Below the pieces are notes generated by a model. That model was given only the letters and a program-made list of their open reading frames with translations, ran no database searches and had not been told where the DNA came from. A stretch of 13,048 nt of DNA from Nitrososphaeraceae archaeon (lineage in GTDB: Archaea; Thermoproteota; Nitrososphaeria; Nitrososphaerales; Nitrososphaeraceae): contig JBIOZG010000049.1 in NCBI GenBank assembly GCA_044870765.1, forward strand, positions 1 to 13,048, written 5' to 3'. This document shows positions 9,949-13,048 of this stretch, piece after piece (the first letter of the stretch is position 1; every line of letters begins with the position of its first letter). Position numbers and translations under genes: made by a program.

Positions 9949-11052
9949 TTATTCAGATTTGAGGGATGCCATATCTATAGAGAAGCGATACTTTACATCG
10001 GATTTGAGCATTCTATCGTATGCCTCGTTAACCTTCTGGATAGGAATGACCTCAACATCTGCAGTAATGTTATGTTTGCCACAAAAGTCGAGCATTTCCT
10101 GCGTTTCGGCAAGACCTCCTATGATCGAGCCGGAGATGCTGCGACGCTGGAACAAAAGTCCAAATGCAGAGACAGCGTGAGGCTTGTCTGGAGCACCGAC
10201 AAGGGTTATGTTACCATCGCGACGGAGTAGTTGGATGTATGCGTTGATGTCATGCTCAGCAGAAACCGTATCGAGTATAAAATCAAAACTGCAAGCGTGT
10301 TTGTTCATCTGGTCTGCATCGTGGGAAACGACAATTTCATCAGCTCCAAGGCGAACCGCATCATCCTTCTTGTTCTGCGAAGTGGTAAAGACAACAACGT
10401 AAGCACCAAGGGCATGAGCAAATTTCACCGCCATGTGTCCAAGTCCACCAAGACCAACTACCCCGACTTTCTTACCATTAGTAACGTCCCAGTGTTGCAA
10501 GGGCGAGTAGGTTGTGATTCCAGCGCAGAGGAGTGGTGCTACTCCGGCAAGATTGAGATTGGAAGGAACGTGAAGGACAAAATGATCTTTAACCACTATG
10601 CTGTCGGAGTATCCCCCATAGGTAACACCTCCTAAGTACGGGTCGGGCGAGTTATAAGTAAGAGTCAAGTTGGGGCAGAATTGTTCAAGACCAGTTTGGC
10701 AATCGGGACACTCCCCGTCCGAGTCAACCAAGCAGCCGACTGCCGCAAGGTCGCCTGGCTTGAATTTGGTGACTGCAGACCCGACCTTTGTGACTTTACC
10801 AACTATCTCGTGGCCCGGAATGCAGGGATAGACAGTGGGCATAACGCTCCACTCATTACGGACCTGATGGAGGTCAGAATGACAGATTCCACAAAAAAGA
10901 ATTTCGATCTGAACGTCGTGGTCGCCGGGATCGCGCCGCGAGATTACTGTTGGCGCAAGTGGCGAGATCGCACTTGCAGCCGAATAACCCTTAGCGCTGT
11001 ATTGACTGCGTGAATCAGAGGTAAATTGTGTAGTAGACATGATAGTTTCCAA
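9949..11052 (-). CDS. NAD(P)-dependent zinc alcohol dehydrogenase, cinnamyl-alcohol dehydrogenase/YahK-like MDR family
   Basis: 367 aa. CGICHSDLH, PGHEIVG, GGYS, APLLCAGITTYSPL, VGLGGLGHMAVK, and C-terminal DVKYRFSID. Start is TTG 11052 or ATG 11040. Confidence 0.96.
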   Translation of the reverse strand: METIMSTTQFTSDSRSQYSAKGYSAASAISPLAPTVISRRDPGDHDVQIEILFCGICHSDLHQVRNEWSVMPTVYPCIPGHEIVGKVTKVGSAVTKFKPGDLAAVGCLVDSDGECPDCQTGLEQFCPNLTLTYNSPDPYLGGVTYGGYSDSIVVKDHFVLHVPSNLNLAGVAPLLCAGITTYSPLQHWDVTNGKKVGVVGLGGLGHMAVKFAHALGAYVVVFTTSQNKKDDAVRLGADEIVVSHDADQMNKHACSFDFILDTVSAEHDINAYIQLLRRDGNITLVGAPDKPHAVSAFGLLFQRRSISGSIIGGLAETQEMLDFCGKHNITADVEVIPIQKVNEAYDRMLKSDVKYRFSIDMASLKSE

Positions 11053-11710: not shown

Positions 11711-11798
11711 AGAGATAGAGATTCTTATTCTAAATTAATTCCAACAGTTCCCCCGTGAATCAAAAACGTCAACTTTAATTAATTAATTGACTCAATCT

Positions 11799-13048
11799 TT
11801 GGCACAGTTGAAGATATTCGTTTCCTATTCATACTCTGACGGAGACGATATAGCTCGTGCTATCCACAGGCATTACAAATCGCTACATCATTCAGTCTTT
11901 ATTTCGAGCAGTGAGATTCAATTGGGCGACAAATGGAATGAGAGAATAAAAGATAGTATAGCAAGCTGTGACCTTTTCTTGGTAGTGGTTACACGAGGAG
12001 CATTGAATAGCAATTATGTCGGGCAGGAGGTCAGTGAAGCAATAAGAAATTCTAAAACCATCGTACCGTGTAGGTATTACGAAATCCCATGGGAAGACCT
12101 AAAGTGGGGAATGGATCAGATGCAAGGCCTCGATTTTGAGGATAAGGCTCCTTTATTAAGAAAACTGGATGAAAGAATTGCCAGACAATATGGAACTTCC
12201 CATAGTGACGAACGAGAGGAGACCGAGCAGGATACTAAATCCTCAAATAGTGATAAACAAGAAAAAGTAGAAGAAGAGACCGAGCAAGATTCCAGGTTCG
12301 ATAAAAAGTCTCGGCATAGGCATCGTAAATTGGTAATAGGTCTTATCATAGTGATTATTACGGCCTCTTTTCTAGTATATGGAATTATGAATAACATGAA
12401 CACACCCGGAGCATTAAATGAACGCGGTTATTCCCTTTATAAAGAAGGTAAGTATGCCGAAGCTATGACATATTATGACAGAGCATTAGCTATAGATCCA
12501 AGTAATACTTATGCATTAAACGGGATTGGCCTCATCCTTTATTCTCAAGATAAATATGACCAAGCTATGACATATTATGACAGAGCCCTAAAAATAAATC
12601 CAAACCTTTCTGGTGCATTATCTAATAAAGGTAACGTGCTTGATTCTCAAGGCAAATATGACCAAGCTATAACATACTTTGATAAATCCTTAGATGTAGA
12701 TTCAAGCAATACTTATGCTTTAATCGGTAAAGGTAACGCCCTAAGAGATCAATCCAAATACGATGAAGCTATAACATACTATAATAAAGCCTTGGCGATA
12801 GATCCAGATAGTACTTATGCGTTAGATAGGAAAGGTAACGCCCTATATTCTCAAGAAAAATACAACGAAGCTATAACATACTTTGATAAATCCTTGGCGA
12901 TAGATTCAAGCAATTCATACGCGTTAAAGGGTAAAGGTGACGCTCTAAGAGCTCAAGGCAATTACACCGAAGCTATAACATACTATAATAAATCTTTAGA
13001 AATAGATCCAAATGATCCTTGGGTACCGAACAGTATAGGCATTGCCCT
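11799..13048 (+). CDS. TIR domain - transmembrane - tetratricopeptide repeat (TPR) protein; C-terminus truncated by window edge
   Basis: Not in the ORF track. Frame open from TTG 11787/11799 to the edge (416 complete codons from 11799): MAQLKIFVSYSYSDGDDIARAIHRHYKSLHHSVFISSSEIQLGDKWNERIKDSIASCDLFLVVVTRGALNSNYVGQEVSEAIRNSKTIVPCRY (TIR: IFVSYS, GDKW...I...I...D.FLVVVT..ALNS.YV.QE), acidic linker, KKSRHRHRK, TM LVIGLIIVIITASFLVYGIM (12330-12389), then 34-aa TPRs from 12405. Confidence 0.92.
   Translation, partial: MAQLKIFVSYSYSDGDDIARAIHRHYKSLHHSVFISSSEIQLGDKWNERIKDSIASCDLFLVVVTRGALNSNYVGQEVSEAIRNSKTIVPCRYYEIPWEDLKWGMDQMQGLDFEDKAPLLRKLDERIARQYGTSHSDEREETEQDTKSSNSDKQEKVEEETEQDSRFDKKSRHRHRKLVIGLIIVIITASFLVYGIMNNMNTPGALNERGYSLYKEGKYAEAMTYYDRALAIDPSNTYALNGIGLILYSQDKYDQAMTYYDRALKINPNLSGALSNKGNVLDSQGKYDQAITYFDKSLDVDSSNTYALIGKGNALRDQSKYDEAITYYNKALAIDPDSTYALDRKGNALYSQEKYNEAITYFDKSLAIDSSNSYALKGKGDALRAQGNYTEAITYYNKSLEIDPNDPWVPNSIGIA
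12405..13048 (+). repeat. Coding tandem repeat, 102-nt period (six complete TPR motifs plus start of a seventh)
   Basis: Units start at 12405, 12507, 12609, 12711, 12813, 12915 and 13017. Consensus xYALxxKGxxLxxQxKYxEAITYYDKALxIDPxN; recurring DNA blocks AAGCTATAACATACT and AAAGGTAACG. Confidence 0.92.

Follow-up and report, generated by a model that had tools for sequence, protein, structure and literature searches.

A predicted transmembrane TIR-TPR protein of a Nitrososphaeraceae archaeon as a candidate sensor for Thoeris-like signaling

In the papers cited here, the TIR-based defense systems of prokaryotes sense infection inside the cell. The TIRs of Thoeris detect infection from within, and a TIR gene next to a SLATT gene (type VII, ThsH) or next to a gene for a CMP-hydrolase with tetratricopeptide repeats (TPRs; type VIII, ThsI) is reported to make up a Thoeris system that signals through cyclic ADP-ribose (10.64898/2025.12.03.692087). 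In E. coli TIR-II, a cytosolic TIR-TPR protein, the TIR active site is needed for phage defense, and bacterial TIR systems seem to be without some features of Toll-like receptors (TLRs), such as membrane association (PMC11350192). Here we describe a gene at the 3′ end of a DNA stretch of 13,048 bases (the window), which is the entire contig C49 of a genome from a soil ammonia-oxidizing archaeon of the Nitrososphaeraceae. The gene encodes an N-terminal TIR domain, a flexible acidic linker, a single predicted transmembrane (TM) helix and an array of TPRs (Table 1). Judging from sequences and structure models, we give a probability of roughly 0.55 to the reading that this protein is the transmembrane sensor arm of a Thoeris-like system that signals through a product derived from nicotinamide adenine dinucleotide (NAD).

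An earlier note on this DNA, made from the sequence alone, had called the N-terminal domain a TIR, and this call passed our HMMER check. Pfam TIR_2 (PF13676) matches at E = 6.2e-16, with 59.4 bits against a cut-off of 28 and coverage of model positions 1–110 of 122, and the domain takes the flavodoxin-like TIR fold in a TIR-only AlphaFold model built with 100 aligned relatives (predicted local distance difference test score [pLDDT] 90.9, predicted template modeling score 0.84). When this model was compared with the PDB using Foldseek, there were 167 matches at E ≤ 0.001. Among the matches listed, all are TIR-domain entries, and the best are SPARTA TIR-APAZ proteins (template modeling score 0.85–0.86, root-mean-square deviation 1.7–1.9 Å; 0.86 and 1.8 Å for the top match), with AbTir at 0.78 and SARM1 at 0.73. 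By sequence, the best relative in the PDB is the SARM1 TIR (phmmer, E = 0.0016). The window protein is nonetheless unlike both of these closest solved folds in that it contains no APAZ, ARM or SAM domain and has no Argonaute partner, no Argonaute-like open reading frame (ORF) being evident in the window by eye. The TIR is instead followed by the linker, TM helix and TPRs, which sets the protein apart from SPARTA, and its proposed mode of activation, clustering through an ectodomain, differs from nucleic-acid-guided tetramerization and from the sensing of nicotinamide mononucleotide or NAD.

The same note had pointed to a conserved glutamate, numbered E77 there and E74 here, where residues are counted from a start at position 11808. 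This residue is present as described. It is invariant in all 33 relatives of one alignment and, in a larger one, is the sole invariant column among 100 relatives (100/100), and in the TIR model it sits in helix 69–80, after strand 56–61 (strand C). We take E74 to be the equivalent of SARM1 E642, on general knowledge and the motif Y/W-x-x-x-E, as the phmmer alignment left the position unplaced. The corresponding glutamate of TIR domains has been described as critical for NADase activity (PMC7075850). Its fold and conserved glutamate identify the window TIR as one of the enzymatic kind, and it is a reasonable inference that it is catalytically competent.

Between the TIR and the TPRs, the acidic linker, the basic patch KKSRHRHRK and the 20-residue helix listed in the earlier note were all confirmed, so that its overall layout stands, with corrections to the number of TPRs and to the start codon. 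Residues 131–170 of the linker have pLDDT values below 50 in the full-length AlphaFold model, and linker length and sequence differ among relatives. The hydrophobic core that follows, LVIGLIIVIITASFLVYGIM, is 20 residues long with a mean hydropathy of 2.74 over 19 residues, and the full-length model shows one straight helix at residues 172–196. Lysine and arginine are distributed very unevenly around this core, with seven in the 15 residues before it and one in the 15 residues after. The same bias appears in a set of 39 proteins that contain an N-terminal TIR motif and exactly one hydrophobic segment, 8 of them from this or related genomes: the means are 4.62 before the helix and 0.69 after, and the first count exceeds the second in 39/39. 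At the N-terminus there is no signal sequence that would take the TIR across the membrane. A hydropathy scan and charge counts accordingly predict a single-pass type II protein, with one span, the positive side toward the TIR and no signal peptide. The topology with the TIR inside and the TPRs outside (N-in, C-out) is a strong prediction, and the single helix with a positive-inside bias, as the earlier note had it, is upheld both here and in the relatives.

It is most improbable that the topology has been misread and that the helix is peripheral or re-entrant, or the protein N-out, which would place TIR and TPRs on the same side or expose the TIR to the exterior. The prediction is indeed based on hydropathy and charge, and soluble TIR-TPR and TIR-NHL fusions exist, but such a misreading would have to accommodate the length and hydropathy of the core, its modeling as one straight helix, the charge bias in the window protein and every member of the set, and the lack of a signal that could take the TIR across the membrane. 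Moreover, NAD+, the TIR substrate, is cytoplasmic. The helix also distinguishes the window protein from the cytosolic TIR-TPR proteins, E. coli TIR-II (PMC11350192) and actinobacterial "group 6" (PMC7075850), with which it shares an N-terminal TIR and C-terminal TPRs: the available portions of these sources describe no membrane helix that separates TIR from TPRs, and some of the proteins carry an ATPase.

Less can be drawn from potential glycosylation sites. The sequons NLS, NYT and NKS of the window protein, at residues 266, 385 and 394, do fall only after the helix, as had been noted, but 0 in the 174 residues before it versus 3 in the 220 after is not significant alone, and we rejected the argument from this protein by itself as evidence. 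Across the 39 TM proteins, there are 1.65 sequons per 100 residues in the tails and 0.84 on the TIR side, compared with 0.75 and 0.86, respectively, in 45 relatives that have no TM segment. This roughly twofold excess is mostly compositional, as 117 sequons were observed and 106.5 were expected from shuffles. The excess gives mild support to an external location of the tails and is no evidence for the glycosylation of the TPR solenoid that the earlier note had proposed.

The TPR array itself is matched by Pfam TPR_1 at E = 1.2e-59 in 6 stretches. The full-length AlphaFold model, for which 33 relatives were aligned, has a mean pLDDT of 87.1 and contains 12 TPR helices at pLDDT 96–98, followed by the first 8 residues of a seventh TPR. 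The tandem TPRs of the earlier note are therefore present, but where it counted at least seven, the window holds six complete repeats and the start of the next. They are helix-turn-helix repeats of 34 residues, in line with the 102-nt unit of the DNA that encodes them. In this genome, TPR proteins appear to be exported. The three nearest TPR paralogs, an nSTAND1 protein encoded on C16 and small proteins encoded on C21 and C32, are 42–46% identical to the window array over their best segments, and in all three the TPRs follow a hydrophobic stretch that is TM or signal-like. No such stretch precedes the TPRs of the two least similar loci, on C24 and C6.

The window protein belongs to a family in which one TIR module is joined to many different tails. 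When 1.84 billion representative proteins were searched exhaustively with HMMER, 3774 relatives scored at E ≤ 0.001; of these, 345 reached E ≤ 1e-10 and 12 reached E ≤ 1e-30. (A word-indexed homolog search with residues 1–200 returned 338 candidates, none at E ≤ 0.001, and was uninformative.) Among the best 150 relatives, 39 (of those no longer than 900 residues) contain a single strongly hydrophobic segment beyond residue 120. Their tails, classed by eye, are TPR in 8, NHL in 7 and Ig/cadherin/PKD-like in 5, with T/P-rich and N-x-T-rich low-complexity stretches or unrecognized domains in the remainder; Pfam assignments cover the paralogs in this genome and two relatives from other genomes. 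The kinds of tail found behind the helix, namely NHL, Big_9/cadherin, PKD-like and T/P- or N-x-T-rich stalks, are usually extracellular. A tblastn search of this genome identified three further TIRs of the same type, and Pfam assigns one of these, on C52, as TIR-TM-NHL and the other two, on C16 and C40, as TIR-TM-Big_9/cadherin-like, so that the genome contains 4 TIR-TM genes with 3 types of tail. Since the TIR-TM-Big_9 genes of C16 and C40 are 80% identical in DNA, they are paralogs. Separately, the ends of these two contigs (C40:1-215 and C16:31635-31849) have in common a 215-nt sequence that is 98.6% identical and lies in the same direction relative to the genes, which points to duplication of a segment or to a repeat where the assembly broke.

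To describe the history of the tails, we placed them on a maximum-likelihood tree of 31 TIR domains, with 28 rows labeled TPR, NHL or Ig-like; the tree was built by a quick method and has only Shimodaira-Hasegawa-like approximate likelihood ratio support. Tail class changes at least 10 times on this tree, where the minimum possible is 2 and the mean after shuffling is 13.3; 10 or fewer changes were seen in 7/200 shuffles. Well-supported branches alone force at least 3 NHL, at least 3 TPR and at least 2 Ig-like changes. The TIRs of C52, C16 and C40 form a supported clade (96) with one TPR-tailed and one NHL-tailed metagenome protein. One relative, of 1529 amino acids (G358), carries about 30 NHL repeats behind its TM helix. 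Both the architecture and the pattern across the family, in which one conserved TIR module is joined to interchangeable tails, are solid.

These exchanges bear on whether the outer domains sense anything at all. One alternative is that the TIR is tethered to the membrane but triggered from within the cell or at the membrane itself. The outer TPRs would then bind no foreign ligand and would only anchor or scaffold the protein to S-layer or envelope, or else signal that the envelope is damaged. This would agree with the intracellular sensing of described Thoeris TIRs (10.64898/2025.12.03.692087), with the existence of TM-less relatives that have the same TIR, and with the nature of TPRs, which are generic scaffolds and occur in other proteins exported by this genome. 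An anchor, however, requires neither 10 or more exchanges among TPR, NHL and Ig-like folds nor some 30 NHL repeats, which ligand-facing sensors would fit better, and we consider a mere tether unlikely.

The combination of a variable outer domain with a conserved TIR invites comparison with Toll-like and IL-1 receptors, to which the earlier note had likened the protein. The layout does correspond: a single-pass protein, a repeat or Ig-like ectodomain, a cytoplasmic TIR, and ectodomains that vary while the TIR is conserved. The analogy fails in its details. Those receptors have an N-terminal leucine-rich repeat (LRR) or Ig ectodomain, a TM helix and a C-terminal scaffold TIR, whereas in the window protein the TIR is N-terminal (type II), the outer domains of the family are TPR, NHL or Big_9 rather than LRR, and the nearest TIRs are enzymatic. 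The likeness is one of convergent layout only, with no evidence for common descent of the architecture. In open-access papers and bioRxiv, we found no description of a TIR-TM-ectodomain architecture in archaea; variants with a TM segment and an ectodomain have been described by Aravind and colleagues for other components of conflict systems.

If the window protein is a sensor, what does it signal to? The neighborhoods of its relatives are more informative than its own. In another Nitrososphaeraceae genome (G362), a complete TIR-TM-TPR gene encoding 402 amino acids is divergent from a MAP3K_TRAF_bd/TPR-S gene, with TIR-SIR2 and nSTAND1 genes about 4 kb away, a second TPR-S gene downstream and a SLATT_1 match on the same contig. 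In G249 and G359, genes for LSDAT(SLOG)-DUF4231-SLATT_1 proteins end 88 and 68 nt, respectively, before TIR genes of the subfamily. The genome studied here has the counterparts of this G362 set: genes for DUF4231/SLATT_1, MAP3K_TRAF_bd/TPR-S, TIR-SIR2_2 and nSTAND1-TM-TPR proteins follow one another on C16, and the TIR-TM-Big_9 gene lies about 7.5 kb beyond this four-gene island. The island holds the only SLATT_1 gene and the only TPR-S gene found in the genome; LSDAT/SLOG was not found there. PADLOC, with a 2023 library that predates Thoeris V–XI, gave no family matches for the C16 SLATT and TPR-S proteins or for the SLOG-SLATT proteins.

Like Thoeris ThsB, the window protein has a TIR with a conserved glutamate, relatives whose genes adjoin SLOG-SLATT or TPR-S genes, and one candidate effector of each of the SLATT_1 and TPR-S types in its own genome. 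It differs in that a TM helix connects the TIR to a domain predicted to be external, while ThsB proteins are described as sensing inside the cell, in that no effector adjoins the gene, in its weak match to PADLOC ThsB models, and in its host, a Nitrososphaeraceae archaeon. Since SLOG-SLATT and TPR-S genes of the Thoeris VII/VIII effector type neighbor the TIRs of relatives, a multi-gene signaling system is indicated, and the one-component receptor envisioned in the earlier note appears less likely.

Two further arrangements were seen near these genes. The nSTAND1 NTPases of C16 (L026:6127-8442) and G362 (L138:938-4093) each have a TM helix of their own, and the tail behind it varies, consisting of TPRs in this genome and of a YNCE/lactonase-like beta-propeller in G362. 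This layout parallels that of the TIR proteins: a cytoplasmic signaling domain, a TM helix and a swapped outer domain. An NLR-like island in G249 (L144; G249:C138:1-16000) encodes a DUF4062-NACHT/NB-ARC protein, a TPR protein, a SLOG-SLATT protein, a TIR-nSTAND3-pentapeptide protein (1155 amino acids) and a TIR-NB-ARC-TPR protein (1118 amino acids).

It is also possible that the protein serves at the surface in adhesion, in the recognition of neighbors or kin or in environmental sensing, with no antiviral function and perhaps a non-catalytic TIR. Domains of the NHL, cadherin-like and TPR kinds typify proteins that interact at surfaces, and TIR, TPR, NHL, cadherin and Ig domains appear in papers on Thaumarchaeota among the "eukaryote-like proteins" discussed in connection with host interaction (PMC7848895, PMC6790972). 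Furthermore, no defense genes were seen elsewhere in the window when its ORFs were read by eye. We regard such a role as distinctly unlikely, as the single residue that is invariant among 100 relatives is the NADase-type glutamate, relatives are found in islands alongside genes for SLATT, SIR2, STAND NTPase and NB-ARC proteins, and the distribution is patchy, with 10/238 genomes containing the TIR.

That distribution was assessed with a family profile, which matches 24/238 genomes of the taxonomic family at E ≤ 1e-10. Its TIR part is matched in 10 of these 238 (G000 [this genome], G362, G359, G342 [with stops], G249, G250, G358, G216, G374 and G273) and in 0/39 other genomes of the genus; these TIR-part counts come from reading the match table and are counts of what was found, since genes may be missed where a genome is incomplete. 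In the order, 31/201 sampled genomes have a Pfam TIR_2 match of some kind. The nearest genomic relatives come from metagenome-assembled genomes titled Nitrososphaeraceae or Nitrososphaerales, and remoter matches, to the TIR only or the TPRs only, are bacterial. From these sequence matches, the family is patchily distributed and centered on Nitrososphaeraceae. The G342 copy (L147; G342:C142:1834-2416) is a subfamily TIR interrupted by one TAA and one TAG and is probably a pseudogene.

SLATT_1 was found in 31/238 genomes of the taxonomic family, and it occurs in 6/10 genomes with the TIR subfamily versus 25/228 others (one of these 25, G394, is flagged unpublished and enters into no other claim made here), counts that overstate the association because related genomes do not amount to independent samples. 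Of the 40 genomes in the genus, neither the TIR subfamily nor SLATT_1 was found in any but this one.

The overstated co-occurrence weighs against a sensor arm of a Thoeris-like system, as do several other points. SLATT_1 was not seen in 4 of the 10 subfamily genomes. PADLOC ThsB1 models match the window TIR weakly (E = 3.1e-5 to 0.029) and over only part of the domain, and the excess of tail sequons, as noted, largely reflects composition. No effector gene can be seen beside the window TIR gene, whose downstream neighbors are cut off by the contig end. The gene itself is truncated, and no contig of the assembly continues it. The window TIR forms a long, divergent branch of the tree (length 1.98) whose exact place is unsure, and as a single query, the window protein matches 0/40 related genomes (only its own of 41). 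Finally, the same TIR occurs without a TM helix in an NHL fusion of 424 amino acids (L139) and in a TPR fusion (P0009). Since such fusions exist, the sensor domains are not inherently external, and their sequences show that TPR and NHL sensors would also operate in the cytoplasm. A third TM-less form joins the TIR to an nSTAND3-like NTPase with pentapeptide repeats (L144, 1155 amino acids). In the window protein, the predicted TM helix is what would put the sensor domains outside.

Taking these points together, we still favor a sensor arm of a Thoeris-like system. The sensor role is the best-supported hypothesis, and the evidence for it comes from the neighborhoods of relatives and from co-occurrence rather than from the window locus. 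We infer the topology, the catalysis, TIR activation through clustering, a connection with the C16 effectors and a role in defense, and a mechanism can be envisioned that joins them. The protein would span the membrane once, N-in and C-out, with a cytoplasmic and catalytically competent TIR, a flexible acidic linker, the TM helix and an outer TPR solenoid. Across the family, the shared TIR would be coupled to sensors that include TPR, NHL propeller and Big_9/cadherin/PKD domains behind a TM helix, as well as NHL, TPR and STAND NTPase modules without one. Binding of an external ligand, which could be a virus particle, envelope damage or a foreign surface, would bring TIRs together, and the assembled TIRs would cleave NAD+ to produce a signal derived from ADP-ribose. 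This signal may activate separately encoded SLATT pore or TPR-S effectors; alternatively, NAD+ may simply be drained. The outcome would be growth arrest or death of the affected cell.

A bolder version of this proposal is that the proteins are true pattern-recognition receptors, in which swappable TPR, NHL and Ig-like heads detect virions or foreign surfaces before or during entry and cluster the TIR, whose NAD-derived product then opens SLATT pores or activates TPR-S. We advance this version only tentatively.

The coordinates of the features discussed are given in Table 1. The open frame runs from 11787 to 13046 on the forward strand, 420 amino acids counted from the first TTG, with no stop up to the 3′ end, and inspection of the sequence revealed no ATG start. 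An ORF that begins with TTG and runs off a contig end is omitted under default ORF calling. The start at 11808 is favored because relatives begin 0–6 residues ahead of KIF (33/33 aligned), with the N-terminus M/V/L-K-I-F-V-S-Y-S, and V or L is given as the first residue in about one third, so that starts other than ATG seem to be usual in the family. At the other end, contigs from three soil-metagenome runs of one study continue after position 13048 with letters identical to those from 12643 onward, no other contig of the assembly shares the last 21–55 bases, and none of the contig ends begins in a TPR-like frame. The assembly, which comprises 2.02 Mb in 59 contigs with an estimated completeness of 96.65%, was probably broken inside the TPR-coding tandem repeat.

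Table 1. Features of the TIR-TM-TPR gene in the window and the related island on C16
Feature	Position	Strand	Details or basis
Start candidates	three in-frame TTG at 11787, 11799, 11808	+	Sequence; 11808 favored, gives MKIFVSYS
TIR domain, residues 1-128	11808..12191	+	Pfam TIR_2, model, Foldseek
Glu74 codon GAG (candidate catalytic residue)	12027..12029	+	Within VGQEVSEA
Acidic disordered linker	12192..12302	+	14 D+E in 44 residues over 128-171; pLDDT <50
Basic patch KKSRHRHRK, directly ahead of helix	12303..12329	+	K/R counts
Single hydrophobic helix LVIGLIIVIITASFLVYGIM, predicted transmembrane span	12330..12389	+	Hydropathy, model
TPR array, 6 complete repeats and start of seventh, predicted extracytoplasmic	12405..13048	+	Pfam, model
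DNA tandem repeat, 102-nt unit x 5.6 copies; 204-nt unit 81% match	12445..13011	+	Tandem Repeats Finder
C16 conflict island	C16:14783-21441 (L026:1784-8442)		ParB-like gene upstream; content resembles Thoeris type VII/VIII

Elsewhere in the window, the upstream neighbor of the TIR gene is a divergent ORF that resembles a zinc-type alcohol dehydrogenase, and the other ORFs resemble housekeeping genes by eye. The dehydrogenase-like ORF (9949-11052, reverse strand, 367 amino acids) lies in a stretch with a G+C content of 0.50, compared with about 0.36, and may have been acquired horizontally. We considered whether this G+C-rich stretch at 10–11 kb might be an RNA gene; Rfam and tRNA scans found no RNA genes in the window, ruling this out, and the stretch is therefore accounted for by the dehydrogenase-like ORF. 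A bacterial-type scan for promoters and terminators upstream of the TIR gene, which is unsuited to archaea, gave no more matches than shuffled sequence.

Several other TIR proteins encountered in the searches may merit attention. Eight metagenome giants of 1400–2300 amino acids (P0011, P0014, P0015, P0023, P0030, P0033, P0048 and P0051) contain 5–7 tandem TIRs of the subfamily, most with a hydrophobic segment. Two TIR-TM proteins, P0041 and P0110, have in common an unrecognized tail of about 110 amino acids (CGT..PGV.LFGSWRW.G...), which may be an undescribed ectodomain. Three TIR proteins of 468–514 amino acids from genomes of the order (L010, L011 and L013) share a C-terminal region of about 350 amino acids and an acidic tail and might be TIR-APAZ-like candidates. 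A close relative of the window TIR (L015; G086:C44) has no TM segment, and its C-terminal end looks cupredoxin-like by eye.

The window gene itself is of limited value as an instance, being truncated and having an uninformative neighborhood. The family, in contrast, offers a compact test case: its TIR is small and conserved, a single helix links it to heads that can be swapped, and the genome also encodes candidate effectors. A Thoeris-type role would extend NAD-derived signaling to ammonia-oxidizing archaea, whose defense against viruses is little studied. If a TIR is coupled across the membrane to surface domains that can be exchanged, some archaea and bacteria would monitor their exterior in the manner of animal TLRs. 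This, if true, would be a prokaryotic form of extracellular immune sensing with an origin separate from that of those receptors.

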